Counted from the first letter of the stretch, positions 6,180 to 25,044 are shown. The stretch is DNA of 64,000 nucleotides from an uncultured Dehalococcoidia bacterium (GCA_964649215.1 CAZYOV010000002.1:2288-66287); one strand, 5' to 3'. A program made the numbers and translations. The notes: a model not told the origin generated them from the sequence alone.

Positions 6180-7556
6180 GTGAACACTGACTACGAAACG
6201 CTGACGGATCGGGAGCTCGCCGTGGCGGCGCGAGGGGGCGACCAGCGGGGGCTGGCGACGCTGTACGACCGCTACTTCCTGGGCCTGTACGACTTCGCCA
6301 TCCGCACTCTGCGCGACACCGACGCGGCGGCGGACGTCGTCCGGAAAACGTTCACGGAGGCGTCGCGGCAACTGGGCGAGGGGACGGTCCCGGAGAGCGT
6401 GAAGGCGTGGCTCTATGGCACCGCCCTCAGAGAGGCCACCACTGGGACGCGGCAGACCCCACCGCAGGAGGGCGGGCGTCGGCAACAGGCCGGGGCGCTC
6501 CCCTCGTTCGTCGAGATCGATTCGGCCCGCGCGCCTGACCCTCAGGCGCTCCAACGAGACGGGGATCTGAGGGAGCTTGTCTGGCAGTCCGCGACCGAGC
6601 TCAGCCCCAGGGAGTACGCTCTCCTCGACCTTCGGCACCGGCGCGAGCTGACCACCGCCGAACTGGCGGCGGCCGTGGGGATCGGCGGAGACACCGCCGA
6701 TGCCACCATCTCCGCGGTCAGCGACACACTGGAGCAGGCGGTGGTGACGGCGCTGCTCGTGCGACGGGGACGCCGTGACTGCCCCGAGCTGGCCGCGCTC
6801 CTGGATCGGACCTCCACCCCGGAGGTGCGACAGGCCGTCCTGGCGCACGCGCAGGAGTGCCCGCGCTGCCAGAGGACCCCAGCCGACTACCCATCGGCGC
6901 TCCAGATCCTGGCCGCCTTCGCGGCGGTGCCGGCGGCAGCCGGCCTGAAGGAGGTGATCTGGCTGGCCGTAGTGAGTACCGGGGCGCCAGCAGAGCCCGT
7001 TGCCGCCGCTCCTGCCGGGCGCGGGAGGCCGCTGCTCATAGCACTGCTCGCCGGGCTTGTGGCCCTAGCGATCGCCGTGGCCCTGATCCTCCTGCTCGAC
7101 TCCGGCGGCGACGATGGGCTGGGCAACCCGGACGACATCCGAAGCACCAGCCACGGGATCGGTGAGCCGTCGAGCGAAACGGTCGTGAGCTTGGTGTGGT
7201 CTCGGCAGGAGGGGGTCCTCGCCTACTCCGTGTCGTGGAGCGGCGACCGGTTCGAGCTTCCCGACGAGGTCGGCGACCTTTCCGGCGACGCAACGGACGC
7301 GATGAGCCCTCAGCTCACGCCCGGGGAGTGGTACTTCCACCTGCGGACCCAGCACGAGGATGGGACATGGACCAACACGGTCCACGTCGGGCCGTTCCAG
7401 ATCGTGGCCGAGGCAACCCCTACGGCCGAGCCTACGGCCGAGCCGACGCCCTCGCCGAGCCCGCAGCCGACACCCTCGCCGACCCCGGAGCCGAGCCCGA
7501 GCCCCACGCCGGAACCCACGCCCTCGCCGACGCCTGAGCCCACACCCACACCCTGA
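6180..7556 (+). CDS. ECF-type sigma factor fused to anti-sigma (zf-HC2-like), TM helix, extracytoplasmic domain and Pro/Thr-rich tail
   Basis: Sigma-70 region 2 (GDQRGLATLYDRYFLGLYDFAIRTLRDTDAAADVV) and region 4 HTH (LSPREYALLDLRHRRELTTAELAAAV). Cys pairs CPELAALL..HAQECPRCQ. TM segment LLIALLAGLVALAIAVALILLL. C-terminal PT-repeat tail (EPTPSPSPQPTPSPTPEPSP..). GTG start. Confidence 0.6.
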   Translation: MNTDYETLTDRELAVAARGGDQRGLATLYDRYFLGLYDFAIRTLRDTDAAADVVRKTFTEASRQLGEGTVPESVKAWLYGTALREATTGTRQTPPQEGGRRQQAGALPSFVEIDSARAPDPQALQRDGDLRELVWQSATELSPREYALLDLRHRRELTTAELAAAVGIGGDTADATISAVSDTLEQAVVTALLVRRGRRDCPELAALLDRTSTPEVRQAVLAHAQECPRCQRTPADYPSALQILAAFAAVPAAAGLKEVIWLAVVSTGAPAEPVAAAPAGRGRPLLIALLAGLVALAIAVALILLLDSGGDDGLGNPDDIRSTSHGIGEPSSETVVSLVWSRQEGVLAYSVSWSGDRFELPDEVGDLSGDATDAMSPQLTPGEWYFHLRTQHEDGTWTNTVHVGPFQIVAEATPTAEPTAEPTPSPSPQPTPSPTPEPSPSPTPEPTPSPTPEPTPTP

Positions 7557-7709
7557 GTGGCGCCAGGAGCTGTTCGCGGGCCTCATCACCCTCTGAGTAT
7601 GGGCGTGCGGCCCGCACTGTAGGCACGTAGGGGATTATTGTCAACAAGGAGGATTGCGTAGTGGGAGGGCGGCTGCGTGTCGCTGCTTGCCTCTGCCGCC
7701 ACCACTGGC

Positions 7710-7750
7710 CCGTTGACACCCGCCCACCCCAAGCGCACAATCGCGGCGGC
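7710..7750 (+). repeat. motif-1 copy C: TTGACA(7713-7718)-N17-CACAAT(7736-7741)
   Basis: ccgttgacacccgcccaccccaagcgcacaatcgcggcggcgggcagtg. Confidence 0.6.
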
Positions 7751-8030
7751 GGGCAGTGAGGTCGCCCCTCCTCAATGGTACCCCCTTGGGCAGCGCGGCT
7801 TTGCTGTCCGCCCGTCACTTGGCTGCTGTAACATCCCATCGTCAGTCGGTGTTTTACATAGTGGCGGAGGCACCACCACCAGGTGATGGTGCAGCGTTCC
7901 TCAACTGACGCGGGGGGTACGTGGTGCCTCTTCCCAAAGACACCCGTGGCACGACGGTGCCAGGCAGCCGAGACACTCACCAAGACACACCCATATCGGA
8001 CTTGAGCCGCGCTCCTCGCTACCCTGAGCG

Positions 8031-8304
8031 CATGCACGCCTGCCACTTCTGTGGTTCGCGCACTCCCAGCAAGTGGGCCGTCACAGCCCGCAACGGGGAC
8101 GCGCCAAACGACCGCTGGCGGCGGGAGATAGCGCCTATCTGCCCTCGCTGCAACAGGCTACTGGGCAAGGCTGTACCCGAAGGGCGCAGGCTGAAGACCA
8201 CAGGTGAGTGGTGGTACTCTGGGCACACCGTTGGACGGCACCTCGACTCGCCGGGCGCCAACGCGATGCAGGAGCACGCCGAGCGCGAACCGGAGAAAGA
8301 TTAG
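8031..8304 (+). CDS. small zinc-ribbon protein (ZR family, copy 2)
   Basis: MHACHFCGS...ICPRCNRLLGKAVPEGRRLKTTGEWWYSGH; about 85% identical to the ORF at 21562-21828. The ORF track starts at 7921 but the paralog supports M at 8031. Confidence 0.6.
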
Positions 8305-8309
8305 CGCCG

Positions 8310-8345
8310 CCGTTTACACCCGCCCAGCTCAGGCGCACAGCCAAA
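8310..8345 (+). repeat. motif-1 degenerate copy (TTTACA..CACAGC) immediately 3' of the ZR gene
   Basis: cgtttacacccgcccagctcaggcgcacagcc. Confidence 0.4.
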
Positions 8346-8988
8346 AATAAACGGGCGCAGCGGCCCTGTCGCGAAAACCGCTGCGCCATCCCTCAGCCAT
8401 GGAGCCGAGAGGCATGATTATACCACTCGAAGCCTTTTTGCAAACCTCTCAAAATATAGGGCCTTTTTGCGGCCCCCGGAATGTCCGGGGTGAAGCCTAG
8501 TATCTGTATAGGGAAACGCAGATCGGAGACCCGTCCCTGAGAGGCCCCTACCCCCTCCCCGCCCTGGCCCGTCCCTAGATAGCGCCTCACGCCCCGCCCT
8601 TAGGCATGGGAGGGTAGGACTCAAACCCCCATCGTGGGTGCCGGGGGCTGAATACAATCCTGTATTGCGTTGTCGCTAGATAGAGAGTCCTATCTACCTG
8701 TCGTGGGTGACGGCCCAAAGAGACGGCCACGGGGGGATGGTGCCTATCTGGGCCGGTTGCCCGTTTGGGGCCTGCCCGTGACGGGAGGGTTAACCCCTTT
8801 TAGGGCCGTGTGTGTGGGCCGGTTAACCCTCTCCTGTACCTAGAGAGAGGGAGGGGATGGTGCAGCTCCCCACATCCTCCACACACATTCGGTGACTAAC
8901 GCAAGGCCATCCCCTCCCCATGGAGAGACGGGCCGTTGGCAAGTATCGTTGCTGGCAGAGGGATGCCGGTATTCTTTGTCCCTACAGG

Positions 8989-9498
8989 CTAGGAGCTGGG
9001 GCTGTCCCCATCGTCCCTAACAACCTCCCCCTCTACAGTGTCGGAGTCCTCCAGGTTAGGGTTCTTCTGAGAGATAAAGTTGATCTGGATGCTCTGGGCG
9101 TTGAGGTTGGCGTTACCCGGCTTCCTATCGATCTCCAAAAGCTTCAACACCTTGTCCATGATGATGCCGGTTGTCACGGCTAGGGTTTGACCCTTGATGT
9201 TACCCGCCGCTAGTTCCTCTTCCAGCAGGTCGCTCGACAGCAGGGCTAGGTCTACGGCGCGGTTCTGTACGACCTCTTTCCTTTCACGTTGAAGTTCAGC
9301 GAATCGTTCCGGCTCTATACTCTTGGTCCAGCGCCAGATCAGGTCACGGCTAGGGGGACGGTCGGGATAGCGCTTGACCATCACACGGTAGGCGTCAGCG
9401 CAGTTGCCAGTAGCAAGGGCTACCGCTACGGCCTCAGCCTTGACCTCTAGCGGATATTCGTACTCGCTGCGGGGGATTACTTCGCGGTTACCACGCAT
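8989..9498 (-). CDS. small HTH protein, phage terminase small-subunit-like
   Basis: 169 aa. KAEAVAVALATGNCADAYRVMVKRYPDRPPSRDLIWRW. Clear paralog of the ORF at 26919-27458. Confidence 0.5.
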   Translation of the reverse strand: MRGNREVIPRSEYEYPLEVKAEAVAVALATGNCADAYRVMVKRYPDRPPSRDLIWRWTKSIEPERFAELQRERKEVVQNRAVDLALLSSDLLEEELAAGNIKGQTLAVTTGIIMDKVLKLLEIDRKPGNANLNAQSIQINFISQKNPNLEDSDTVEGEVVRDDGDSPSS

Positions 9499-9814
9499 GT
9501 CCTCAGTATAGCAGGAGGGTTACACGGTTACGTGTGAAGGTGGCCGGCGCCGGGTAAATCTCTCCCATCACATCATGGGAACGGTTAGGGGAGGCCAGTG
9601 ACACCGAGACAGGGATAGTCCAGAGGCGTACAATACCCCCACTATGGAGCCGCGTATCCAGTACGCCCAGACCAAGGACGGGAAGGCCGCACGCTAAGCG
9701 CGGTTATGCTAAGGCCCTGCGTGCTAGAATTTCTTAGAGCCTCGCATGACCCCTAGATTGCCGGGGCAAGTGTCACCCCCGGACATCTTGTCGCCCACGT
9801 TCTAAGGATACCTA

Positions 9815-10606
9815 GTGACTGATCGCCTCGCAGGTGTTAATGCGAAAATCGCACGGGCCAATAAGCACATCGACGACTTGGATGGTCGGCGTCAATCCTT
9901 TTTCGTAGAAGACCCGTACAAAGTCGGAGCCAAGCGCGACAAAAAGACCCGAAGACCAATCTATTACATCACCAGCGTTCAAGATGTCCCGCCCGACATT
10001 GCGGCCGTAGCCGGAGACGTTATCCAAAACCTCCGTAGTGCCCTTGACCATTTGGCTTATCAGCTTGTTCTGGTCGGCACGGGATTGCCGGGGCCGTTCG
10101 ATCATGTCTATTTCCCAATCTCTGACTCGGCCTCGAAGTACGAAGCCGGAAAGGCGAGACAGATAAAGGGCATGAGGCAGGACGCCATAGACGCGATCGA
10201 CGCGATCAAGCCATACAAGGGAGGGAATGACATACTTTGGCGACTCCATAGCCTCAACAAAATCGACAAGCACCGACTCCTTCTCACCGCTGGGTCTACC
10301 CTTGAAAGCGTAGACATTGCGGGTGACATGACTCGGTTGCTGGAGAAGGCGATGGGCAAGCCGCTTGACATGGCTTTCCCCGAATTGGCCCTCCGACCTG
10401 CCAACAGGCTCTTCCCCCTGAAAGCAGGCGACCATCTCTTTATCGGTGCCCCTGATGACGAAATCGACAAGAACAAGAAGTTCACCTTTGAGGTATCGCT
10501 CAATGAGCCTGGGATTATCGAGGGTGAACCTGTGCTCAAAGTGGTCAAGGACATGCTTGATCTTATCGAGAACCTTACTCCCAACTTCCGACCGTTGCTC
10601 AAGTAA
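9815..10606 (+). CDS. hypothetical protein in low-GC patch; possible HEPN-like (Rx4H) abortive-infection-type protein
   Basis: 263 aa. GTG start with AAGGA 8 nt upstream. Local GC about 50% against about 65% background. Motif NLRSALDHLAYQL. An equally long antisense ORF (9812-10624) makes the strand call uncertain. Confidence 0.4.
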   Translation: MTDRLAGVNAKIARANKHIDDLDGRRQSFFVEDPYKVGAKRDKKTRRPIYYITSVQDVPPDIAAVAGDVIQNLRSALDHLAYQLVLVGTGLPGPFDHVYFPISDSASKYEAGKARQIKGMRQDAIDAIDAIKPYKGGNDILWRLHSLNKIDKHRLLLTAGSTLESVDIAGDMTRLLEKAMGKPLDMAFPELALRPANRLFPLKAGDHLFIGAPDDEIDKNKKFTFEVSLNEPGIIEGEPVLKVVKDMLDLIENLTPNFRPLLK

Positions 10607-10715
10607 GGCCCGATCACCTTTCATGGCGAACCTTGTACAGTAAAGGGGCAGTTGCCAGACTTCTTAGTGTTCCCTCTCCGGGTGCAGACGTGAGGTTTCC
10701 TGGTATCGCGGCGTG

Positions 10716-11921
10716 TCACCGTGTCAACAGCCCGTCTACGTTCGCCACAGGCTTGCCTACGTCCATGCGGGATTGTTCGGGGATTTTGTTCCTTTCATTC
10801 ACTCCAACCATAGGGATATGGTTGGATGAAAGGATGAATGTATAATATCCCCGTCGTAGTTTGTGAATCTGTCCCGTCTGTACGAGGCCGTTGACGGCTC
10901 GTCGCACGGTGGTTTCGGAGAAGGGGCTGGCCTCCACGATATCCTTAAATTGCGCCCCTTTGAGCCTAGACGCTCCCCACTGCTTGAGCCATTCCTGGGC
11001 CCTGATCACCTCGCCGACGCCCTTATCCCCGGCCACCTCCGCAACCTCGAACTGGTCCTCTCCTCCCTTGAGTAGGAACAGCTTCTCGTTGCCGCCTAGC
11101 CATCGGTTCTTTGCCATGTCCAGCTTCACCGTGTCGCTGTCCACCGTCTCTAGGTTGAGGACGATATCGGCGCTCGCAGGACGGGCTGAGGCACCGCGTG
11201 CCTTATACACCTTCTTGGCAATTTCGCCCTTGCCGATCTGCTGAACCTGAATCACTGTGGCGCTCGTGAGGGTGATCAGGTCGCGGATGGCCCGAGCCTG
11301 GGCGTTGGCCTCAGCGTTGTCCTCCTCTCGCTCGGTTCGGAAGGCGGCTGATATCGTGTCGATGATCACCACGTCAAAGCTGTGCTCCTTGACGACCAAG
11401 GCCAGCTTGTGGATATCCTCCATGAAGTCGATGGCCGGAATGAACGCCAACCCCTCGGGGCGGTCACTGGTAGAGATGACGTTGAGCTTGGTGCGGCGGA
11501 GGTTGTCAGGCGTCTCTAAGTCGAGGTAGAGCACGCGCAGGGGTCGGGGGAAGGGAATCCCCACGAACTCCTTCCCACGGGCCGCATGGACGGCCCAGTT
11601 GTAGAGGAGCGTTGTCTTGCCGACGCCGGAGTCGCCGCTTACGAGGACGTTGCTTCCGGGGAAGATGAATGGTCCCCACAGGCTTTCCGTCTCGCTCTCA
11701 TCTAAAGGTTCCAGGTCCTTCGCCCACAATAGGGAAAGTTCCTTTCTTTCAACATTATCCTTAGGGATGGATGGATGGAAGGAACGTTCGTCGGGCGCGC
11801 CGCCGTTGCGCCCGATGCCGTCCGCCCGTGGATGGGGTTCCGTGGTCGGACCCGCGTATTCGCACACGTGGCATCGGCCGTCGTCTGCCAGCAGGTGATT
11901 CCTCTCGCAAGTGGCGTTCAT
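10716..11921 (-). CDS. RepA-like AAA_25 ATPase (replicative-helicase-like) with N-terminal Cys motif and C-terminal wHTH
   Basis: Walker A VLVSGDSGVGKTTLL. Walker B/DExx region VVIIDTISAAF. 401 aa. Confidence 0.7.
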   Translation of the reverse strand: MNATCERNHLLADDGRCHVCEYAGPTTEPHPRADGIGRNGGAPDERSFHPSIPKDNVERKELSLLWAKDLEPLDESETESLWGPFIFPGSNVLVSGDSGVGKTTLLYNWAVHAARGKEFVGIPFPRPLRVLYLDLETPDNLRRTKLNVISTSDRPEGLAFIPAIDFMEDIHKLALVVKEHSFDVVIIDTISAAFRTEREEDNAEANAQARAIRDLITLTSATVIQVQQIGKGEIAKKVYKARGASARPASADIVLNLETVDSDTVKLDMAKNRWLGGNEKLFLLKGGEDQFEVAEVAGDKGVGEVIRAQEWLKQWGASRLKGAQFKDIVEASPFSETTVRRAVNGLVQTGQIHKLRRGYYTFILSSNHIPMVGVNERNKIPEQSRMDVGKPVANVDGLLTR

Positions 11922-12096
11922 GGCCTGTCCTTCCCCTCCCCCTGCGGAAGCGCTGGAGCTGCCCTGTTAACGAAGACGCGCCTGCAGTGCTGGCAGATGG
12001 TGTGCCGAGGAGACAACGGACAGCACGGGGAGTCGCAGGGGTAGCCGCAACTTGGGCACGGCTCGCGTGTCGGCTCAAGGAAGTCAGGGGGAGCTC

Positions 12097-12354
12097 TCAT
12101 CGCACCTCCCGCCGCCTCCTCTGACGTACTTTGGCGCTCTGCAGTGCCATCCTTGAGAAGTGAAGCTTCTTGGCCGCTTCCGCCCTCCGCTGACGCTCTG
12201 CTGGTGGTAGAGTACCGTCAGGGTCAACCTGTTCCTCGAATTTCGAGAGGAATCTTGCCCTCGCTGCCGCCGTATATTCTCTGGAATCGCGCTTGGCGGA
12301 TAGGGCCAGGCCCCCAATGCGGGCACGAAGCGTCGAGAGGGTTTTGCCACTCAC
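12097..12354 (-). CDS. small basic hypothetical protein
   Basis: 85-aa ORF between the ATPase and the next gene; basic, possible DNA-binding protein; weak support. Confidence 0.25.
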   Translation of the reverse strand: MSGKTLSTLRARIGGLALSAKRDSREYTAAARARFLSKFEEQVDPDGTLPPAERQRRAEAAKKLHFSRMALQSAKVRQRRRREVR

Positions 12355-12401
12355 AGACCGAAGTCTACGGTGTGCTAGGGTCCGACAATTAGCGTGGAAA
12401 T

Positions 12402-13217
12402 TTAGCGTTGACGGCGCTTGGAGCGTCGCCAGCGCTCCCTGTCACGTGCTTGGCGACAGAGGTCGCAGAGGCGGTTGCGATGGCGCTTGGGAACAAACGG
12501 GAGCAGCCTTGTGCAGTCGGGGCACCGGCTAGGAAGAGTAGCGCTGCGTAGATCGTCGGCGATCTCTTGATAGCAGAGCGCCCACATGCTAAAGCAGACG
12601 GTGGTGTGGACAGGTAGGAACTCGTAGTTGTCCGGCTCATCGGAGCCGGACTTGGGCTCTCCCGTCCAGCGGTTCGTCTCACTGAGATCATCTACTGGCG
12701 GCTGCTCGCTTTCAAACTTGGTCCATACAGCCTTCTCAATGTCCAGTTCCACAACATCGTCCAACAACCTCTGCGTTAGCGCCTCGGTATCCCATGAGCC
12801 CCACGACTCCATCTTGTCACCGAAATAACGCAATGCCGACACCTCGTTATCGAGAATCTCCAGCGCCCCGTCGCTCATCAAATAACCGCGATGCCCCATC
12901 CTCGCGCCAACGAACAGACCGAACCACTGGGCCCATTTCCACGTCTCTAGAAGCGTGGTGTCGAATCGGCTCACTCTGTTGAAAATCTCAAGATAGAAGC
13001 GCTCTGGAGTTGGCAAGTAGGCACGCCCAGCTAGCGCCGTGCCGGTGGGATCGATCAGGATGATGGCAACCGTGCCGCTGTCAATATTGACATACGGTGT
13101 GTCAACTGAGCCGGGGGCAAACAGCCCGTATTTCATTGCACTGGCCTTGATCACACCCTTGTCGAGGGCGGTATCACCCAACACTTGCTGGAAGACCAGA
13201 ACGTGGCGGCCACGCAA
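12402..13217 (-). CDS. hypothetical protein with C-terminal CxxC..CxxC zinc finger
   Basis: 271 aa; ..RCPDCTRLLPFVPKRHRNRLCDLCRQ; no recognisable catalytic motif. Confidence 0.45.
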   Translation of the reverse strand: MRGRHVLVFQQVLGDTALDKGVIKASAMKYGLFAPGSVDTPYVNIDSGTVAIILIDPTGTALAGRAYLPTPERFYLEIFNRVSRFDTTLLETWKWAQWFGLFVGARMGHRGYLMSDGALEILDNEVSALRYFGDKMESWGSWDTEALTQRLLDDVVELDIEKAVWTKFESEQPPVDDLSETNRWTGEPKSGSDEPDNYEFLPVHTTVCFSMWALCYQEIADDLRSATLPSRCPDCTRLLPFVPKRHRNRLCDLCRQARDRERWRRSKRRQR

Positions 13218-13276
13218 TATTCAGTGCTCCTAGGTGGCCTTGGCTGAGGGGCGCTCCCGACACATGAGGGGCTGGA

Positions 13277-14221
13277 TCACAGCCTGTCCCCCAACCGCAG
13301 CCGCTTGTGGGCGGCCAGCGCTCTCTCTTGCCCCGTGCTGGCGGCGTAGCGTAGAACCATGTCCCGCGACCGCCAGCCCATGAGCCTCATCAGGTCGGAC
13401 TCGGCGCCGCCGGCTGCCAGCCACGCGTGGGCAGCGCTGTGTCGCAGTATGTGTGGATGTATTCTGCCCAGCCCCGCCTGCTCGCCGCGGCGGCGGATCG
13501 CCAGGCGCAGCCCTTGGTCGGTAAGCGGCCCCCTACGCCCCAGCCACAAGGCCGCGGAGTGGGCGTCACGATGGGCGGCCCGGAGGCGGAGGTACTTGTC
13601 CAGCGCCCGCCCCGTCTTTGACCCTAGAGAGACGACGCGCCAGCGCCGACCCTTTCCTAGAACGCGAACGACGCCCTGATCGAGGTCTACGTCGTGCTGC
13701 TCCTCGTCGTCGGGACACCAGCGCAGGCCCAGGACTTCGCCGATGCGACAGCCAGTGTCGATCATCAGTCGGATGATGGCCATATCGCGACGGTCCTCAA
13801 ACCACTGGCCTTCGCAGGCCCGAAGCAGCTTCCGCAGCTCACCCTCGCCCAGGACGTCCGGCGCTTCCTCTGGGATCTTGGGTACCTGCATCCGCGCCAT
13901 TGGCGACTCCTTGATCTCGCCGTCCTCCACCAGGAATTTGAAGAACTGCTGAAGCGAGCGGTAGCGGTTTGCGGCGGTGGTGGCCTTGAATCGCGTCAAC
14001 AGGTCGGCGATGAACTCCTCGAGGTGCTCGCGGGTGATTGCCGACACGTCGCGGGGCATTCCCCGGTCGGCAAGGAAGACGTCGAGCGCCTTCACAGCCT
14101 CGGTGTAGACCTCCACCGTCCTGGGGGCGCGGTTGCGCGCCTGGAGATACCGCCGGAAGGGGCCGAGGTTGACTTGTATGCCGCTCTCCGCGACACTGTG
14201 TGCATGGGCGGCTTGGCGCAT
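13277..14221 (-). CDS. tyrosine recombinase/integrase (XerC/D-like)
   Basis: R..HxLRH..Y catalytic signature ([22 protein letters not shown]). N-terminal SAM-like domain. GGAGA SD before the ATG at 14221. Adjacent to tRNA-Gln. Confidence 0.8.
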
Positions 14222-14308
14222 TGTTTATCTCCTTGCTGGGTAATCGGTTCACCTAATTATCTATGCAACGAGCGCTGTGCGTCAAGCCTCCCAGATATAA
14301 TTTATAGC

Positions 14309-14382
14309 TGCGGGATTGTGTAATGGTAGCACGGCTGATTCTGGATCAGTTAGTCTAGGTTCGAATCCTAGTCCCGCAGCCA
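14309..14382 (+). tRNA. tRNA-Gln (anticodon CTG)
   Basis: 74 nt with cloverleaf. Acceptor TGCGGGA/TCCCGCA. Anticodon stem GCTGA/TCAGT with loop TTCTGGA. T-arm CTAGG-TTCGAAT-CCTAG. Ends in CCA. Confidence 0.8.
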
Positions 14383-14387
14383 AGCGT

Positions 14388-14464
14388 GGCGCATTCGTCT
14401 AGTGGCCCAGGACACCGCCCTCTCAAGGCGGAGATCACGGGTTCGAATCCCGTATGCGCCACCA
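14388..14464 (+). tRNA. tRNA-Glu (anticodon CTC)
   Basis: Acceptor GGCGCAT/ATGCGCC. Anticodon stem CCGCC/GGCGG with loop CTCTCAA. T-arm ACGGG-TTCGAAT-CCCGT. CCA end. Very similar overall to canonical bacterial tRNA-Glu. Confidence 0.8.
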
Positions 14465-14481
14465 CATTTTCAATAGGGAAA

Positions 14482-14506
14482 CGCCCCCCGGAGGGGGCGT
14501 TTGTCG
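14482..14506 (+). terminator. rho-independent terminator hairpin after tRNA-Glu
   Basis: cgccccccggagggggcg followed by tttgtcgtcc. Confidence 0.55.
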
Positions 14507-14523
14507 TCCATTTGTCGTCCAAA
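14501..14523 (+). repeat. integrase arm-type tandem repeat ttgtcgtccatttgtcgtccaaa (attL side)
   Basis: 22 of 23 identical to 29349-29371; a related copy at 9787-9797. Confidence 0.55.
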
Positions 14524-14524
14524 C

Positions 14525-15670
14525 TCACGAGCCCGTCGCCGCCAGAACGCCGTCCAGCGCCGACGCCGCCTCCCGCTGCATGTCCGGCAGGACGTGGGAG
14601 TAGGTGTCTAGGGTGATACTCACCGTGGCGTGGCCCAACCGCTCGCTGACTATTTTCGGGTGGACGCCCGCCTGCAACATTAGGGTCGCGGCGGTGTGCC
14701 GCAGGTCATGCACCCTCAGCGGCCCCACGTCAGCCGCCTTGACGACGCCGTAGAACACGCGGCGAACAGTTGAGTCGTAGACGGGCCTCCCCAGCGCGTC
14801 GGCGAACACAAGACCGTTCTCCTCATAACCTGGCCCCACCTGCATACGCTGTTCCAGCTGCTCCCGGCGATGCTCCCTGAGAGCGGCCACCGTGTCGGGC
14901 GAGAGAGCGACGGGCCGCCGCGAGCGCTGCGTCTTCGGCTGGCTGAACACGATCCCCTGCCCCCTAGCGAACCGGGCCGTCCGCACGATCCTCAGCGTCC
15001 CCCCGTCTAGGTCGACATCCGACCACCGCAAGGCCAGCAGCTCGCCCGACCGCGCTCCGGTCTGTAATGCGAGGTAGAAAAAGGTGTAGTGCGGCGTGTC
15101 CGAAGCCGCCTCCAAGAACCGCTGCGCTCCCTCCGGCGAGAGGACGCGCATCTCCCTCCGCTGCGCCCTTGGGGCTGACACGGCGTCGGCAGGGTTTGCA
15201 GCCAGCAGTTGCCACTTCACCGCCCAGGACAGAGCCTCCCGCAAGATCGCGTGGTGCTCTTTGACCGTCTTGGCGCTTAGGGATTCGCCCCGCCCGTCGC
15301 GGCGTTGAAAGGACGAGTAAGCCGCCTGTATGTGGGCGGGCCGCAGGTCGCGCAGGCGAACCCGCCCCAGCGCCGGTGCCAGGTGGTGGCGGACGATGCC
15401 CTGATATCGTTGGAGGGTAGAGGCTGCGACCTGCTCGGTGGCATAATCCCGAAGCCAACGCTCCAAGAAGTCGCCGACCGTGATCTTATTGGGGGCGATG
15501 TCGATGCCGGTGTCCCGCTGGTGCAGCGCTTCGGAGAGGACGCGCTCGGCTTCCTTTTTCGTCCCCCTCACGGTAAGAAAGCGGCGCAGGCGTCGCCCCT
15601 GAGCGTCGCGCCCCAGGTCTATGGTGAGCCCCCAGCCATCTTTACCCCGTCTTCGGATGCTTCCGGCCAT
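14525..15670 (-). CDS. phage-type tyrosine integrase with N-terminal arm-binding domain
   Basis: 381 aa. HDLRHTAAT...LGHATVSITLDTYSH catalytic box. First gene next to the tRNA-Glu 3' end. Confidence 0.85.
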   Translation of the reverse strand: MAGSIRRRGKDGWGLTIDLGRDAQGRRLRRFLTVRGTKKEAERVLSEALHQRDTGIDIAPNKITVGDFLERWLRDYATEQVAASTLQRYQGIVRHHLAPALGRVRLRDLRPAHIQAAYSSFQRRDGRGESLSAKTVKEHHAILREALSWAVKWQLLAANPADAVSAPRAQRREMRVLSPEGAQRFLEAASDTPHYTFFYLALQTGARSGELLALRWSDVDLDGGTLRIVRTARFARGQGIVFSQPKTQRSRRPVALSPDTVAALREHRREQLEQRMQVGPGYEENGLVFADALGRPVYDSTVRRVFYGVVKAADVGPLRVHDLRHTAATLMLQAGVHPKIVSERLGHATVSITLDTYSHVLPDMQREAASALDGVLAATGS

Positions 15671-15822
15671 CGCCCTGCTCCTTTCGTCGCCTGCGAAACG
15701 CCTTTGCCTTACAAGCTGGACTGCAATACTTCTGAGAGTACGGTTGCAGAGGTTCGTACCTCTTGCCGCACACAGGACACTTAACTCTCATGCCGTAAGC
15801 GTAACGGCAGGCGTTACGATTG

Positions 15823-16053
15823 TCAAGCCTTTTCTTTGTTTAGCAGCGCCGGGGCGTCATCCCTGCCGCCCTCTGACGCACTGCACTGCTCTTCGATCCA
15901 CTGGTGCAACCGATGCCGGGGGAGGCGTATGATTCGGCCCAACCTGACATGCGGCAGCTCGCCGCGACGGATCAGTTCATACACGTGGTTAGGGTGGACG
16001 CGCAGCAGCTCGGCGGCTTCAGCGACGGTTAGCAAGGGGGCGCTATTGTCCAT
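15823..16053 (-). CDS. excisionase-family / AlpA-like HTH DNA-binding protein
   Basis: LLTVAEAAELLRVHPNHVYELIRRGELPHVRLGRIIRL; 76 aa, located just downstream of int. Confidence 0.6.
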   Translation of the reverse strand: MDNSAPLLTVAEAAELLRVHPNHVYELIRRGELPHVRLGRIIRLPRHRLHQWIEEQCSASEGGRDDAPALLNKEKA

Positions 16054-16502
16054 TTCCCTCCAGCCTTGGCTGATGGGCGGCGGGGAGGATGGGGCTCTCT
16101 TGCAGCTTGAGGTCGCCTACGGTGTCGCCTTCGCCGTCTTCGCCAAGCTCTCCCTTGACGATCTCGCAGATGCCCTCGCAGAGATGGAGAAGCTGTAGCT
16201 CGGCGCGGCTGAGATTGCGGGGCAAGTAGGGTGCCGCTCCGTGAAGGTTAAGGATACGGACAGCGGCCACGCGGATGTTTCTCAAGTCGTGCTGTCCGAG
16301 CAAGGGAAATCTCGCTTGTGCTACCCTAAACGTAGCCGTCGATTGCACGGCGTCCTCCAATATCTAGGCCCGCTCTCTGATTCGCGTCGGGGGCGGGTCT
16401 GGTGCTTTTCGTGAGCCCTCATAGCCGCCGAAGAGGGGAGGAACCACATGGATATGGCCCAGGGAAAGGAGAACCTGGAACCCCTTCGGCGACTGTGGCG
16501 GA

Positions 16503-18524
16503 TCACGAAGTCTCCCATGATCGGTCTAGCCTATGTTCGTCGCAGAATGGCTTGCCGTTAGGGGCGTAGTAGGTGGCCTCAGCCCCGCAGGTGAGGCAGG
16601 AATCGGGGCCGTCGTCAGGGCTCTCCATAGGCGGGGCTGACTCTTGGTGTTCCGTATCTGAGCCGTCTAAGGTGGGGTCGGTATTCTCTCCCCGCCTTAG
16701 GGCAGGGAGTTCCCACTTCCACTGTCCATCGGCCCCAAATCCAGACTTCACCGACCGCACGCCGAGCGCGTCCTTTGCCCCGCGAAGCGTTGCCTCTTTG
16801 ACCCCCGCCGCTGTCGCCGCCTTCCGTATTTCGGTCGGTGACACGGGGCCGCTAGAGAGCAAGTCTGTCAGAATCTCTTTGGCTTCGACTAGCGCGGTTC
16901 GCCCCTCGCCATCAGCCGGGGCCGCTAGTAGCTGGTGCGCCGTCAGATCGGACTTGCCCGCCCAGGTGAACCCCTGGCCGTCACTCCAGCGGTAAGTCAG
17001 CGTCTCAGCCGGTGCCGCCAGGTTGTTCTTTACAACGGCGAAATGGCGCAGCGTCGAATCGTCAGCGTCCTCGCCCACCAGCAAGACGCTACGGGGAGCT
17101 GCTGAGAAATCTATAGAGGCGAGAATCCGCTGGAAGGCGTTGCCCGCCAGCTTCTTGTTCAGGTGAATAATGCCCAGGACACTCACCTTAGTCTCTCCGG
17201 CCAGCCTTTGCAGGGGGGCCAGGACGCCGCGCACTTGGGCGGATACGTGGGTGTCCGTACCGCCGGTGAACGCTAGAACGGGGTCGATGATGATGAGCCG
17301 CGTCTCTGGGGTGAGGGCCTGTTCTAGCAACGGTAGGTGATCATGGAGATTAAAGGCTACCTCCCCCTCTGCCGTCCAGATCATCGTCAAGGCCGTAATC
17401 CGATTCACGTCGGCTCCGAGCGTGTCCAAGCGGGGACGAACAGTATCGTCTAGGTCGTCTTCGGCGGTGAGAAGTAGAACGTCCCCCTGCGGAGCGATCC
17501 CGCCGTCCGGCCAGGGGGAGCCGCGAGAAGTCCGAGCGGCGATGTCCAGGGACAGCATCGACTTCATTAACCCAGGGTCCCCGGCGATGATGGAGATTTT
17601 ACCCAGGGGAATACGCCCAGGCCAAAGCCACTGAACCTGACGGGGGGTTACGTCGCTCAGGCGCACCAGTACAGGGGCCTTCGGCGGGGCGTCCTCATTT
17701 TCGTGAACGCCGAACTGCGAGTCTGGAATATGAATGTTCCCGCCGGCGGGACGTTCTCTCTTGGGCTTGCTGGCAGGGTAGCGGGCGACACTGGCGGCGA
17801 TAGCCAGTACATCGCGGTTGGATAACGGGGGGTCGCAGCGGCCCGTGTTGGCGACCAGCAGGGCAGCAGCTATCTCAGCCTCCCCGAAGCCTCTGCGTCT
17901 CATCGTCCCCGCGAGGCTGGCGAGGGTACTGTTGCGCTCGCCGCTGGGGATGATCTCGCTAACCTCAGGGGCACGCTGCCCGTTCTGCATCAGCCTCTTG
18001 AACACGTCGGGCAGGGGGGCAGGCTTTAGATCACCAGGGGCGCACCCCACCTCCCATTCGTACCGACGCCCTGAGGCGTGCACGGAGGGCGGCGCTACGA
18101 TGTAGCCGCCCTTTGAGCGAACGTCTACGCCGGGCGCGATGCCCGCGCCGTTCCCGTAATCCTCATCGACGTGGTAGATAAGGTGACAGCCGCCGCCGCC
18201 GGTCAACGCGGTCACGGTATCGGGCAAGTCTCCCAGGTTGGCTACTGATTCGTCGCCGCCTGATCGGGGGTCAATGTCGATGGCGAGAAGGCCGTCGCCC
18301 ATGACTAACCCGATATTGGCCTGGGGCTGTTCGCCCCACCATTTCGTAATCGCCGCCACGTCAACCGTCGCGTCGCTCAGGCCATGCTCTGTCCTGGGAT
18401 GTTTGGCGGGGGAGCTACAGTCCCCTCGCTGACAGGAGCACTTGCCGTCAACGGCCCACTGTAGGGGGAAGACGGGCCGCCCCTGGGCCGCGTAGGAAAG
18501 GGCGGCGTCCAGCAGGGCGCTCAT
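16503..18524 (-). CDS. bifunctional primase-polymerase (Prim-Pol, PriCT) fused to RepA-like AAA_25 helicase ATPase
   Basis: Prim-Pol N-terminal domain (LLAIDIDPRSGG, GGGCHLIYHVD, SKGGYIVAPPSVH). ATPase segment KISIIAGDPGLMKS. The likely start is M at 18524, coupled by an ATGA overlap to the upstream small ORF. Confidence 0.75.
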   Translation of the reverse strand: MSALLDAALSYAAQGRPVFPLQWAVDGKCSCQRGDCSSPAKHPRTEHGLSDATVDVAAITKWWGEQPQANIGLVMGDGLLAIDIDPRSGGDESVANLGDLPDTVTALTGGGGCHLIYHVDEDYGNGAGIAPGVDVRSKGGYIVAPPSVHASGRRYEWEVGCAPGDLKPAPLPDVFKRLMQNGQRAPEVSEIIPSGERNSTLASLAGTMRRRGFGEAEIAAALLVANTGRCDPPLSNRDVLAIAASVARYPASKPKRERPAGGNIHIPDSQFGVHENEDAPPKAPVLVRLSDVTPRQVQWLWPGRIPLGKISIIAGDPGLMKSMLSLDIAARTSRGSPWPDGGIAPQGDVLLLTAEDDLDDTVRPRLDTLGADVNRITALTMIWTAEGEVAFNLHDHLPLLEQALTPETRLIIIDPVLAFTGGTDTHVSAQVRGVLAPLQRLAGETKVSVLGIIHLNKKLAGNAFQRILASIDFSAAPRSVLLVGEDADDSTLRHFAVVKNNLAAPAETLTYRWSDGQGFTWAGKSDLTAHQLLAAPADGEGRTALVEAKEILTDLLSSGPVSPTEIRKAATAAGVKEATLRGAKDALGVRSVKSGFGADGQWKWELPALRRGENTDPTLDGSDTEHQESAPPMESPDDGPDSCLTCGAEATYYAPNGKPFCDEHRLDRSWETS

Positions 18525-18739
18525 TGCATCAACCCAATTTCGAGCCGGGGGCACTCGGCTTCACGAAGCGCGGCTAGAAAATGATCTACGGCTTCGGGGA
18601 GCGCACGGCGGGCATCATCATCGCCGTAGACGGCCATCTCCGCGAGGCAGTCCAGCCAGGACGTGGCCTGTGTGGGCGTGCAGCAGGTCGGGGTGTGGCT
18701 AGGCCACCGAAAAGGTTGTGTGCTATGCTTGGAGTACAT
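18521..18739 (-). CDS. small hypothetical protein, translationally coupled to the primase gene
   Basis: 72-aa ORF whose stop overlaps the ATG of the prim-pol gene (ATGA). Confidence 0.35.
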   Translation of the reverse strand: MYSKHSTQPFRWPSHTPTCCTPTQATSWLDCLAEMAVYGDDDARRALPEAVDHFLAALREAECPRLEIGLMQ

Positions 18740-18796
18740 CGCGTTTCCTTTCGTCGGGCTACGCAGGCAAGCCGCCTTTCGGGGCGGCTTTGCTGT

Positions 18797-18979
18797 TTAC
18801 ACGGCTACTGATTCCCGTTCGTTCAGAATGCGCTCAACCTCGGATTCGGCGACGCGGTAGTGGCCGTTCGGCAACTTCTTCGCGTCGAGCTTGCCGTCAC
18901 GAATCCAATTCCACAGCGACCACCGAGTGAGACCTAGCTGCTGCTCAACCTCGATCAAGGGCAGCATCCGTTCGGGCAT
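18797..18979 (-). CDS. AlpA/excisionase-family HTH regulator
   Basis: 60 aa; LTRWSLWNWIRDGKLDAKKLPNGHYRV. Confidence 0.5.
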   Translation of the reverse strand: MPERMLPLIEVEQQLGLTRWSLWNWIRDGKLDAKKLPNGHYRVAESEVERILNERESVAV

Positions 18980-19091
18980 GGCCTTCTCCCTTCACACGAT
19001 CCATAACCTGAGTATCACGCGAGCAAGGGGAGTCTGAGAAGGAAGGGTTTTCCGAGTGGGGGTTGCCGCCCTTTAGATAGGGCGGCGGGGT

Positions 19092-19742
19092 CTAGTTCCT
19101 AGAGGGCGGCAACATTCGGGGCGGACTCTTTGCCGCCCCCACCAGGCCCCAGGCGCGAAGTTTATCGAGCCTGTATCGGAACGTCCTGTCAGCCATCCCA
19201 ACAAGGTCGGCGGCGGCATCGGCGCTTAACTGCCCACCACCTCCCTGACGCAAGTAGTGGACAGTGAGCGTGTCCAGGCTCTCATCCCAGTTCAGGAGAG
19301 AAAGGCGCGGCCTAAGCATCTGGGCTGCAAAGGCGACGTGAAGGGCGGCTTCCGCCTTCTGTAGCATTTCCCGCTCTGGGTCAGGAGTAGCTTCGAGAAG
19401 CGCAACGACTTCTGGCGTTGGCTCTACGGGAAACGGCTGCCCATCTTTGGCGAACGACTGACGGAGAACCTCACGGACAGCGGCTGAACTATCCTTGAAT
19501 TGATAGCTCGCGCCCTCTGGCGTTCCGGTCACATGAATGACCAACTCTTGCCGCCGCACGCAGGCAGGATCCCAATCATGGCGGTACGTCTCTCCTAGCA
19601 AGACAGACTGAAGGTGCTCCTCCATGCGGGGAGAGAAGTCCGAGTCTTCTGGAGCCGAGTACACGCGAAGCCCTTCCCTCAACTCAAGGAGCGCCTGCGC
19701 TCGATCCCTAACCAGGAGGCTCACGGGAATCCCGTGTATCAT
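19092..19742 (-). CDS. hypothetical regulator with C-terminal HTH
   Basis: 216 aa; C-terminal ..ADLVGMADRTFRYRLDKLRAWGLV; motif-1 copy D lies about 240 bp upstream in the correct orientation. Confidence 0.45.
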   Translation of the reverse strand: MIHGIPVSLLVRDRAQALLELREGLRVYSAPEDSDFSPRMEEHLQSVLLGETYRHDWDPACVRRQELVIHVTGTPEGASYQFKDSSAAVREVLRQSFAKDGQPFPVEPTPEVVALLEATPDPEREMLQKAEAALHVAFAAQMLRPRLSLLNWDESLDTLTVHYLRQGGGGQLSADAAADLVGMADRTFRYRLDKLRAWGLVGAAKSPPRMLPPSRN

Positions 19743-19985
19743 GCGTCCATGATATCGTCAATGGCGATGGATCGCAAGTAACTATACCAAGCGCCTACTC
19801 AGCTTAGCCCCTAGAAGCCAGTCAGAAGCCACCAGATGACCGAGAGACGCAGGCACCGCCCCAGCTCGTTGTATGGCTTGGCCGAACGCCACTCGCGGCC
19901 CACGGTACAATAGGAGACGCGGACGGCGAGCCTTCTGAGTTCCCAAGTCCTCCTAGCGATGGGGCTTGGCCCCTCAGACGCCCTG

Positions 19986-20026
19986 AGACGCGATTGTGCG
20001 CCTGGGGTGGGCGGCTGTCAACGGGG
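19986..20026 (-). repeat. motif-1 copy D (reverse orientation): TTGACA = rc of 20016-20021, CACAAT = rc of 19993-19998
   Basis: cgattgtgcgcctggggtgggcggctgtcaacgg. Confidence 0.6.
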
Positions 20027-20178
20027 CGTGTCGGGCTTAGCGTGTCACCCTCCAGGGGGGCTTGACAAACGATGGGGAAACGCTATCCTGTAATCCGTCA
20101 ACGAAATATAAAGCGACGGGCGGCGGTGGATGTCGTGGCCGAGATTCGGTCAAGAGGTAAAGGGAAGGGGGAGACGAG

Positions 20179-20598
20179 ATGATACGTCCGATCTTTGTTG
20201 TGGTGGGCCTAGCTGTCATTGCTGCATCTTTGATGGCCACCAACCATATTTCTCTCGTGCTTGATATCGACATCAAGCCGGGCAGCGACCCGAACTCGAT
20301 CAGGCCGCTCAATAATGGCCTCCTCCCGGTGGCCATTCTGGGCAGCGCCACTTTCGATGTCAACGACGTAGACGTGAGCACTCTGGCGTTCGGCCCCGAT
20401 GGCGCGGTGCCCGTTCACGACGAAGGGGGCCACTTGGAGGACGTGAACTCTGACGGCTTTACGGATCTGGTCTCTCACTATCGCATCCCGGAGACCGGCA
20501 TCGCGTTGGGCGATACAGAGGCCTGTGTCACCGGCGAGCTGCTCGACGCTACGCCCTTCGAAGCCTGCGACGACATCCGCACCGTGCCCGTGCCCTAG
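20179..20598 (+). CDS. small secreted protein with dockerin/EF-hand-like Ca-binding loop
   Basis: Signal peptide [34 protein letters not shown] resembles a dockerin repeat. GGAGA SD. Confidence 0.5.
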
Positions 20599-20630
20599 GC
20601 GAAGCTGGACTCCGGCGGCGACTCGCTGGT

Positions 20631-20672
20631 CGCCGAGATTGTGCGCCTGGGCCGGGCGGCTGTCGAAGGAGA
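20631..20672 (-). repeat. motif-1 copy E (reverse; -35 variant TCGACA)
   Basis: gagattgtgcgcctgggccgggcggctgtcgaagga, 33 bp after the stop of the 20179 gene. Confidence 0.5.
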
Positions 20673-20935
20673 CGCGAGGGTTCGGCTGGCAGCGGGGGCC
20701 CGCTCTCCACCGTGAGGCTGAGCTGGCGGGCCAAGTGTGGCTGGCCCTGGCCGCCGTGCTGGCGGGCGCGGCGCTCCTCTTCAAGCTGACCTAGGCGGAT
20801 CATGGTACGAAGGATCTCTCTCGTCTTCGGGACGGTGACCGGGCTGCTGCCCTGGCTGTTGGGCCTGGCAAGCTTTGCTCGTAGAGGCTACTATGAATCC
20901 ATGGAGGTCTTCGGGATGGGCACGGAGGGAGCGGC

Positions 20936-21313
20936 GTGACTTCGGCCAGGCTGCGTCGTATCGTGCTCGACCGGCCTATGCTAGCGGTCGGACTGGTCGC
21001 TGCTCTGACGGGGGCAGCGCTGGCCAGCGGGATCATGGCTTACGGCGCGATAGCGGACGGTACCAAGTACACAACGCTGTCCTGGGCGCTCATCGCCCCG
21101 GTCTGGGGTCTCCTGGCCCTGCTGTGGCTCCTCGTCCGTCGCTGGCCGCTGGCGGCGGCGGCTTCGATGGGCTGGCTGGCGATCTTCGCGGGTATCTACT
21201 ATGGCGATGTGTACGGCCAGTTTCCCGCCGCGCTCCTCTTCTTGCTGGGGACGGCGATAGTGTTCGTTCCCGACCGGGCGAAGGACGGCGGTACCCGCAC
21301 GATGCGAACGTAA
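20936..21313 (+). CDS. small integral membrane protein (about 4 TM helices)
   Basis: 125 aa; alternating hydrophobic stretches; GTG start with GGAGGGA upstream. Confidence 0.45.
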   Translation: MTSARLRRIVLDRPMLAVGLVAALTGAALASGIMAYGAIADGTKYTTLSWALIAPVWGLLALLWLLVRRWPLAAAASMGWLAIFAGIYYGDVYGQFPAALLFLLGTAIVFVPDRAKDGGTRTMRT

Positions 21314-21517
21314 CCGGCAAGCTACCTGTGGGGGCGTTGTCGGGCCGGAAGCCCTCGGCAGTGTGGTGGACGCCGCCCGGGAAGCGCCACCGCCTGTTGT
21401 TTTCAACACCAGCTCATTTGTGTGATCCGTAGGGAACGCGGATAGCGTCCCTGATAACCGCCTTGGGGGGGGGCTTCTGAGGTCACCCCTGGGCCACAAG
21501 GGCAGCGACCCAACTGC

Positions 21518-21558
21518 CGCCGCGATTGTGCGCCTGGGCTGGGCGGGTGTCAACGGGG
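21518..21558 (-). repeat. motif-1 copy F (reverse): tgtcaa 21548-21553, attgtg 21525-21530
   Basis: Immediately 3' of the ZR gene at 21562. Confidence 0.6.
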
Positions 21559-21561
21559 CCG

Positions 21562-21828
21562 CTAATCCCTCTCCGATTCGACGTGCTCCTGCATCGCGTT
21601 CGCGCCTGGCGAGTCGAAGTGCCGTCCAACGGTGTGCCCAGCGTACCACCACTCACGTGTAGACTTCAGTCTGCGCCCTTCGGGTCTGGCCTTGTCCAGT
21701 AGTCTATTGCAGCGTGGACAGATAGGCACTATCTCCCGCCGCCAGCGGTCGTTTGGCGCGTCCCGGTTGCGGGCAGTGACGGCCCACTGGCTGGGTGTGG
21801 GGGAACCGCAGAAGTGGCATGCGTGCAC
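21562..21828 (-). CDS. small zinc-ribbon protein (ZR family, copy 3)
   Basis: MHACHFCGSPTPSQWAVTARNRDAPNDRWRREIVPICPRCNRLLDKARPEGRRLKSTREWWYAGH; near-identical to the protein at 8031-8304. Confidence 0.6.
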   Translation of the reverse strand: MHACHFCGSPTPSQWAVTARNRDAPNDRWRREIVPICPRCNRLLDKARPEGRRLKSTREWWYAGHTVGRHFDSPGANAMQEHVESERD

Positions 21829-22084
21829 GGGGCTCAGGGTAACGAGCAGCGCGGTTCAAGTCCGATAAGGTTGTGTCGTGGTGATGGGGAAGAGGCACCA
21901 CGTACCCCCCGCGTCAGTTGCGGAACGCTGCACCATAACCTGGTGGTGGTGCCTCCTCCAGCAGTAAAACACCGACTGACGATGGGATGTTACAGCAGTC
22001 AAGCGACGCGAAGAGCGGACAGGAGTCGCTACCTGCATTGGGGGGCCAAACCATGGGAGGATTCTCATGGTGGAGCGACTTCCA

Positions 22085-22132
22085 CTGTCCGCCACCGCGA
22101 TTGTGCGCCTGGGCGGGGCGGGTGTCAACGGG
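22085..22132 (-). repeat. motif-1 copy G (reverse): tgtcaa 22123-22128, attgtg 22100-22105
   Basis: Upstream of the ZR copy 3 leader. Confidence 0.6.
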
Positions 22133-22235
22133 GGCTAGGCCGCTTCCCGCCACCTCAGCTCGTATAGCCGGACAGGGTCCTCGAAGCCACGCAACTCGGT
22201 CTCGCCCAGCCACGCATCGACTGTGGACAGCTCGC

Positions 22236-23156: not shown

Positions 23157-23322
23157 CTCTTGCTGCTCCTTCTAGTACACGACTGACACATGGCGGGGAT
23201 ATTGTACGCCTCTGGACTATCCCTGTCTCGGTGTCACTGGCCGTCAGCAGGAAGCCTAGGCCGTATCCTCCAAAAGTACCTGAGCCGCCGCCCCTAGACC
23301 CTCCCCCTGATACCATCTAAGG

Positions 23323-23529
23323 GTGACCACCACTGTTTACTGCTACGTCTGCGACCAGCCCATAGGCGGCGACCGCTGGCAGGCCGCTATTCGCGATTCC
23401 TTAGATAGCGCAGGCTTGAATCTGAGGCGGTGGCGCTGGGTTTCGGTGTGTCGGGCCTGCCGCTGGGAGAGACCGCCCAGAAGACGTCCCGGCGTACCTA
23501 ATGAGATCGCTGGGGAGTGGCACCCGTAG
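23323..23529 (+). CDS. possible divergent zinc-ribbon protein (ZR-like, copy 4)
   Basis: CYVCDQ..DRW..RRWRWVSVCRACR; CxxC pairs and DRW/RRW motif echo the ZR family; GTG start; 145 bp upstream of fic. Confidence 0.3.
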   Translation: MTTTVYCYVCDQPIGGDRWQAAIRDSLDSAGLNLRRWRWVSVCRACRWERPPRRRPGVPNEIAGEWHP

Positions 23530-23673
23530 CAGACGTTGGCCGCCGACTGCGTGCACGCTGCCCCTGCTACAGCCGTCCGGCCTGGCACCGGTAGGGCCAT
23601 GGGTGTTGGTTAAGGGTCTTTCATCAAGATGTGCCTTGATTAAGTAATCGGCCATATGCTTAAATAAGAGCTG

Positions 23674-24921: not shown

Positions 24922-25044
24922 GTCGCTGACAAGAGCATCAGTTCCCAGCGCCCTGGGCGCCGAGTCAGCGCCTCGTTGGCAGCCACGTAAATGCGAGCAG
25001 TATCATGAGTTCGACAGAGGAAAGGGGAAAGGAGACTCTGATTC

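Follow-up and report, generated by a model that had tools for sequence, protein, structure and literature searches.

We analysed a 64,000-nucleotide stretch of DNA from an uncultured Dehalococcoidia bacterium (GCA_964649215.1, CAZYOV010000002.1:2288-66287; the window), which carries a tRNA-Gln and a tRNA-Glu gene side by side and an integrase-bearing segment on each side of the pair (Table 1). To the right of the tRNA genes lies a 15-kb integrative element (14465-29517, the right element). To their left lies a segment, the left island, in which the region between 9.8 and 14.3 kb carries, as a preliminary description of this DNA had noted, its own integrase, a tyrosine recombinase beside tRNA-Gln, and a RepA-like ATPase of the AAA_25 family. 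Rfam detected two tRNAs and nothing else over the window. The same description had drawn attention to a short sequence, CACCCCCGGACATCTTGTCGCCCACG, which is indeed found at 9774-9799, just upstream (18 nt) of the lower-GC open reading frame (ORF) 9815-10606. It was taken for one of three attachment (att)-like sites, at 9774, 14485-14523 and 29331-29371, bounding two tandem insertions.

Table 1. Features of the tRNA-Gln/tRNA-Glu locus (positions in the window)
Feature	Coordinates	Strand	Remarks
Candidate decayed tRNA-Gln 5′ fragment, weak	7651-7675	+	20/25 identity to tRNA-Gln positions 5-29
CxxC-protein module (ORF 7921-8304)	7709-8339	+	inverted relative to 21527-22132 of the right element
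Conserved non-coding module	8340-8988	.	common to the right element (25860-26925) and L009
169-aa gene, mosaic ancestry	8989-9498	-	chimeric between right-type and left-type relatives
Promoter-like patch	9593-9646	+	GAGACA-17-TACAAT (9606-9634), directed at ORF 9815-10606
Third copy of the short repeat	9771-9797	+	one TTGTCGCCCA unit (9788-9797), ATC and CCCCCGG before the unit
Cassette with ORF 9815-10606 (263 aa, lower GC)	9802-10670	+	unrelated to the arm-site patch
AAA_25 (RepA/DnaB-like) ATPase	10716-11921	-	PF13481, 1.7e-27; PHROG helicase/primase matches
271-aa hypothetical gene	12402-13217	-	also called in L001; no family match
Left integrase, Xer-like, 314 aa, without arm-binding extension	13277-14221	-	PF00589 and SAM_4/SAM_1
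Promoter-like site of the left integrase	14256-14285	-	TTGACG-18-GATAAT
tRNA-Gln(CTG)	14309-14382	+	positions 1-38 (14309-14346) are the att identity block of left-type elements
tRNA-Glu(CTC)	14388-14464	+	last 23 nt (14442-14464) are the attL core of the right element
GC hairpin, terminator-like	14485-14497	+	between tRNA-Glu and the arm sites; hairpin at the same place in L008, L077 and L071
Putative P′ arm	14501-14521	+	TTGTCGTCCA twice, period 11, directly after the integrase stop codon
Right integrase, 381 aa	14525-15670	-	PF00589 and SAM_3; ~60-aa N-terminal extension before SAM_3
Excisionase-like HTH_17 protein	15823-16053	-	phrog_66 and others; PF12728 in L011
Prim-Pol / PriCT / AAA_25 replication protein	16503-18554	-	right element
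Putative P arm	29358-29378	+	tandem pair TTGTCGCCCA and TTGTCGTCCA
attR core	29495-29517	+	displaced 23-nt tRNA-Glu 3′ fragment, 100% identical to 14442-14464

Comparison of the window with itself placed the ends of the right element not in these att-like sequences but in a 23-nt exact direct repeat, TTCGAATCCCGTATGCGCCACCA (14442-14464 and 29495-29517), formed by the 3′ end of tRNA-Glu. No third copy of this sequence was found in the window when up to three mismatches were allowed. An exact repeat in two copies is the classical signature of integration into the 3′ end of a tRNA gene, and the other hallmarks of such elements were also present: an intact tRNA, a displaced exact 3′ fragment and a tyrosine integrase gene close to the tRNA, the stop codon lying 61 nt from tRNA-Glu. 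The sequence indicates that the right element is integrated into the tRNA-Glu 3′ end, with crossover via the 23-nt repeat. Among its cargo are a SoFic-type Fic protein and a luciferase-like monooxygenase. The Fic gene (23674-24921, PADLOC 410 bits), a known anti-phage defence candidate, lies beside the monooxygenase gene (22236-23156). A scan of the right integrase against viral_contigs returned distant matches only (≤35%) and was uninformative. Actinomycete elements of the pSAM2 type are small integrative and replicative elements with Int, Xis and a primase-helicase. Compared by gene content, the right element resembles them in its Int, HTH_17 excisionase, Prim-Pol/AAA_25 protein, tRNA 3′-end integration and cargo, but differs in that no transfer (FtsK/Tra-like) gene was identified in it.

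The sequence TTGTCGYCCA occurs six times in the window, at 9788, 14501, 14512, 29358, 29369 and 37052, always on the plus strand, against 0.22 copies expected. The copy at 37052, within the GluRS gene, is probably due to chance. The copies near the ends of the right element form the tandem pairs, each of period 11, that had been taken for att sites (14501-14523 and 29358-29380). Both pairs lie inside the element and are distinct from its core, at +37 nt on the integrase side and at -137 nt at the other end. After excision the two pairs would stand in the circle as direct repeats to either side of the core. Their layout is that of arm-type and not of core sites.

The attP sites of heterobivalent tyrosine integrases, of which lambda attP is the type, have arm-type sites on the P and P′ arms. 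The right element resembles such systems in that each arm of its reconstructed attP bears short direct repeats distinct from the core, arranged in tandem beside int, and in the extra N-terminal segment of its integrase and the excisionase gene nearby. It differs in that the N-terminal domain of the integrase scored below the Pfam threshold and in that its arm sites are putative. In the relatives of the right integrase that metagenomes yielded, the tRNA 3′ end is followed in turn by a GC hairpin, a tandem pair of period 11 and the integrase stop codon. At this fixed position the motif co-varies in five relatives, a result whose scope is the int-proximal arm: the pair motif is TTGTGGCCAT in L008 and TTGACGCC in L077, both at tRNA-Glu, TTGCAAAC in L071/L082 at tRNA-Arg and TTGCCACCC in L085 at tRNA-Pro. 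Because the position is conserved while the sequence of the motif co-varies, the TTGTCGYCCA pairs are probably arm-type accessory sites, most likely bound by the N-terminal extension of the right integrase. Between the P-arm pair and the attR core, four periodic repeats of about 10 nt could be read from the sequence on the plus strand (AGTGA/AGTAA/AGTGA/GGTGA, 29382-29420); these are candidate excisionase or DNA-bending sites.

The left integrase is built differently. It opens with a core-binding SAM-like domain at residue 22, whereas in the right integrase some 60 further residues come first, and the two proteins are 26% identical over 219 aa. Its start (14221) is 88 nt from the 5′ end of tRNA-Gln (14309), and the element lies upstream of the tRNA. 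Homologues of the left integrase were collected by protein search and genome scans. Those of L003, L005/L006, L008, L009, L010 and L012 (61-92% identity) are separated by 88-113 nt from the beginning of the same tRNA-Gln, on its 5′ side. The relatives carry variable replication cargo (Prim-Pol, DUF3631, AAA_25 or DnaG zinc ribbon). GCTTGACGCACAGCG, part of the promoter-like stretch upstream of the left integrase gene, recurs upstream of the L005 integrase gene (9930-9944). The nearest genome match is the metagenome-assembled genome OY762959.1, with 73% integrase identity.

Wherever long contigs exist, left-type elements are bounded by direct repeats of a tRNA 5′ half. These repeats are exact in L003 (39 nt, tRNA-Gln positions 0-38), L005 (37 nt, tRNA-Gln positions 1-37) and L015 (39 nt, tRNA-Pro positions 1-39), and 95% identical in L013 (43 nt, 5′ half of tRNA-Gly). 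Distant actinobacterial members of the family lie on the 3′ side of tRNA-Val, tRNA-Met or tRNA-Arg, and their 3′-half repeats start at tRNA positions 28-36. Because the 5′-half and the 3′-half repeats of these relatives both break at the anticodon loop, the att sequences indicate that the family crosses over there and is able to carry either half of the tRNA. Among islands in the Islander database, 159 have a 5′ fragment of the tRNA gene (tDNA) and 3760 a 3′ fragment (159/3919, ~4%; PMC4383910). Like the 5′-fragment islands, the left island has an integrase facing the 5′ end of the tRNA and lies upstream of it, and the far ends of L003, L005, L013 and L015 carry 5′-half repeats ending at the anticodon loop. 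The left island of the window differs from them in that its displaced fragment is missing.

At 2560-2930 of L002, a left-integrase homologue (82% identity) has no adjoining tRNA-Gln; its homology to the window ends about 8 nt short of the expected 5′ end of the tRNA, and a TIR-domain gene comes next. In L003 a 45-nt copy (96%) of the 3′ part of tRNA-Gln (7371-7415 and 9819-9863) adjoins a 2.4-kb insert that has no integrase and separates tRNA-Gln from tRNA-Glu; the tRNA-Gln of L003 has been struck on both halves. L077 was considered as an empty site of the left element and rejected, as its tRNA-Gln 5′ end is locally duplicated, together with native flank, on the two sides of a 0.9-kb insert. 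The duplicated sequence (483-556 and 1438-1490) comprises the first ~20 nt of tRNA-Gln and ~35 nt of native upstream flank, including a TACAAT -10-like box, and the bracketed insert encodes a probable membrane protein.

The partner of the copy at 9774-9799 proved to be 29344-29369 and not 29331-29358. The 22 of 26 matches claimed for the pair can be reached with gaps (~23 matches with two or three gaps), but ungapped identity over this 26-mer is 19/26, and the best ungapped register, 9771-9797 against 29341-29367, gives 21/27. The core of the match is an exact block of 13 nt, ATCTTGTCGCCCA (9785-9797 and 29355-29367); CCCCCGG is also kept. Per shuffled window, 0.06 occurrences of the 13-mer with up to one mismatch were expected, and 0.00 of the 23-nt pattern with up to three mismatches. 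In an empirical control, 13 of 400 random 27-mers of the window had a second match of at least 21/27. The repeat at 9774-9799 is real and modestly, not overwhelmingly, non-random.

The match to the P arm stops at 9797, and of the tandem pair only the first unit is there. The single unit at 9788 has no adjacent core, and a search of the window with up to three mismatches found no tRNA-Glu 3′ fragment near 9.8 kb. Conservation of the site in relatives was not borne out either, the orphan TTGTCGCCCA unit being absent upstream of the same ORF in L001 and L093. Unlike the arm sites of lambda-type systems, the 9788 copy stands alone, as a half-site that belongs to no attP. The segment 9771-9797 is not an attachment site of either element. 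Because it has neither core nor partner unit, is unconserved upstream of the ORF in relatives and adjoins an integrase without an arm-binding domain, it is best read as a truncated relic, one unit of the P-arm region of a right-type element, which would have been brought in by recombination.

The DNA around the repeat is a patchwork. The module at 7709-8339 is 79% identical to 21527-22132 of the right element over 654 nt, and the CxxC proteins are 86% identical; 8340-8843 matches 25870-26922 of the right element. In the 169-aa protein encoded by 8989-9498, the N-terminal 124 aa (9127-9498) are 60% identical to a 179-aa protein of the right element (26919-27458), and the C-terminal 65 aa share 40% identity with the HTH_23 protein of L009, a left-type element; the C-terminus matches that protein and not the right-element paralogue. 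The promoter-like patch 9593-9646 is 94% identical, in inverted orientation, to 23189-23242 of the right element. L009, whose integrase is 92% identical to the left integrase, runs collinear with window positions 10767 to 8433. Because the patches match the right element while L009 is collinear and the C-terminus is of left type, the comparison indicates that modules have been exchanged between left-type and right-type elements.

From 9802 on, the cassette with ORF 9815-10606 has 83% nucleotide identity to L093/L094, where the same ORF stands between ferredoxin and 2-hydroxyacid dehydrogenase genes and is preceded by different upstream sequence. The ORF forms a discrete cassette, which a related organism has in other genomic surroundings. 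Its family counts more than 1500 uncharacterised homologues of ~265 aa from several phyla, without Pfam domain. L001 is the only near-identical relative (99.96% over window 9816-14464). In its segment 4650-5250 (SRR8799000) a DUF3090 gene is joined directly to the start codon of the ORF, in place of the window sequence left of 9816; this gene is absent from the window. Position 9816, where L001 diverges, was considered as the boundary of the island and demoted, in view of the cassette homology to L093/L094 reaching 9802 and the collinearity of L009 from 10767 to 8433. The ORFs 9815-10606, 12402-13217, 8989-9498 and 7921-8304 had no match in Pfam, PHROGs, NCBIfam or PADLOC, and no exact-protein record was found for the 169-aa, HpcH and 726-aa proteins. 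A dispersed promoter-like repeat of ~40 nt, CCCGTTGACACCCGCCC...GCGCACAATCGCGG (TTGACA-N17-CACAAT), occurs in intergenic positions of the window (2742, 3701, 5964, 7709, 8310, 19989, 20631, 21516, 22091 and 45817), in L002 (5 copies) and in L009, that is, both within elements and in apparently chromosomal DNA of the lineage.

Taken together, these results make it fairly probable that the tRNA-Gln/tRNA-Glu pair is an integration hotspot which has received two different integrative elements on its two sides, and that 9771-9797 is a relic. The right element would have entered the 3′ end of tRNA-Glu by recombining through its 23-bp core, with the TTGTCGYCCA pairs at 14501-14521 and 29358-29378 as its arm-type accessory sites. 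The left island would run leftwards from 14346 to at least 9.8 kb and probably to ~7.7 kb. Its Xer-like integrase is predicted to cross at the anticodon loop and to swap the 5′ half of tRNA-Gln, which would place the element upstream of the tRNA and make it provide the tRNA promoter. The mosaic at 9499-9800, which holds 9771-9797 and abuts the separately acquired ORF cassette 9802-10670, may have been made by recombination between co-resident or related elements. The position of the tRNA genes between the two segments, which the preliminary description had called atypical and left without explanation, is uncommon, but it is accounted for by the tRNA 5′-half att of the left family: the tRNAs stand between the islands because one island entered tRNA-Gln from the 5′ side and the other tRNA-Glu from the 3′ side. 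In L008, from another metagenome, the same back-to-back pair of integrase types surrounds the tRNA pair.

Several observations weigh against this interpretation. The similarity of the third copy is short, with p ~0.03-0.06 taken alone. Strain heterogeneity, a rearrangement or faulty assembly could each account for the L001 junction, and the last of these would count against the reading. The P arm was seen only in the window's own element, the relatives having been compared at the int-proximal arm. The match of the right integrase to Arm-DNA-bind_4 was sub-threshold (E=0.1, 12.6 bits against a cutoff of 22.3), so the protein that reads the motif could be the excisionase or another protein. A second tRNA-Gln 5′ half was not found in the 64 kb with the full 38-mer or with two 20-mers, up to three mismatches being allowed. 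A displaced 5′ tRNA fragment is present in L003, L005, L013 and L015, and the assignment of the left island to the 5′-fragment class rests on these relatives. Candidates for the left boundary are the point at 9816 where L001 diverges and the 20/25 match at 7651-7675, which is the best non-self match in the window but barely above noise (span in the scoring scan 7647-7688).

The TetR and GluRS genes, at 35.05-37.9 kb in the window, are found in L003, L005 and L077 just past the 5′ side of tRNA-Gln and in the opposite orientation. Compared with these three relatives, the window has an inverted block that runs from the left island across the tRNAs to the DUF5667 gene. Because it has no distal 5′ fragment in the window and the block is inverted, the left island probably lost its distal att and was stranded or truncated; we infer that it is immobile. 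The preliminary claim of a second element left of the tRNAs thus holds for an integrase-bearing island, probably a stranded remnant, but not for a tandem copy, the types of integrase and att being different. In the three relatives TetR lies ~100 nt past the tRNA-Gln 5′ fragment; the places compared in the window are 34970-35052 and the left end of the left island.

The arrangement originally proposed, three att sites of one system at 9774, 14485-14523 and 29331-29371 with two tandem insertions excisable separately or together, can hardly be upheld. In its favour, the five TTGTCGYCCA units near the elements all face the same way, as direct repeats, and there are two integrase genes. Yet the right element truly ends in another direct repeat, that of the tRNA-Glu 3′ end, the motif pairs are internal to this repeat at opposite distances (+37 and -137 nt), and the 9788 copy consists of one unit without core. 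Tandem islands at one tDNA all lie to the same side of the gene, and each junction carries a fragment of that tRNA (PMC4383910). The locus is like such tandems in having more than one integrase-bearing island at one tRNA locus. It is unlike them in that the islands flank a two-tRNA cluster, the left segment being 5′ of both tRNAs, and in that they use different tRNAs, different tRNA halves and unrelated integrases. The tRNA-Glu 3′ end, the true core, is present in two copies only, neither of them near 9.8 kb, and the left integrase, with its different architecture and the 5′-half cores of its family, is not of the type that uses this att. It is no more credible that the left integrase is a housekeeping XerC or XerD and 9.8-14.3 kb ordinary chromosome, even though the protein has 314 aa, Xer-like domains and thousands of homologues of the same length annotated as XerD. 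Against the NCBIfam equivalogs it scored 152.1 bits for XerC (cutoff 335.15) and 138.4 bits for XerD (cutoff 329.6), and its homologues stand beside tRNA genes with Prim-Pol, DUF3631 or AAA_25 cargo and bounding tRNA-half repeats. The housekeeping role was rejected on these scores and on synteny.

The other two alternatives concern the short repeat. Chance similarity without shared ancestry is unlikely: although the match is short, 3% of random 27-mers of the window have an equally good second match, and the unit inside the GluRS gene at 37052 is also a TTGTCGTCCA, the 13-nt block at 9785-9797 coincides exactly with the functional unit plus its three upstream bases and the CCCCCGG context. Four other patches with homology to the right element are also found no more than 2 kb away, and the block is placed alike with respect to the paralogous 169/179-aa genes. 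The unit might instead be a working operator, through which the right integrase or excisionase modulates the 9606-9634 promoter into ORF 9815-10606. Its place, with the promoter-like site on one side and the ORF start on the other, and its 13 nt of identity to the P-arm unit speak for this, but the unit is single, whereas the functional sites of the family are tandem pairs, and it is lacking upstream of the same ORF in L001 and L093; we regard this role as improbable. On somewhat longer odds still, the orphan unit may have become, via exchange of arm DNA, a functional site by which the right element regulates the cargo ORF of the left island, which, if true, would amount to regulatory cross-talk between two co-resident, unrelated integrative elements.

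With the preferred reading, that of a tRNA hotspot occupied from both sides, the map of the locus is corrected: the 15-kb element has the tRNA-Glu 3′ end as its attachment core, the TTGTCG repeats are probably accessory arm sites, and the odd position of the tRNAs follows from the uncommon 5′-half polarity of one of the islands. The locus consists of known kinds of element in an uncultured Dehalococcoidia lineage, and as a hotspot it is ordinary. For annotation pipelines it illustrates that arm-site repeats can be mistaken for att sites and that an Xer-like integrase beside a tRNA can be mislabelled XerD. The Xer-like family, as its att repeats suggest, holds both users of the 5′ half (Gln, Gly and Pro) and users of the 3′ half (Val, Met and Arg), and is therefore a natural set for the incremental question of what decides which tRNA half is carried.

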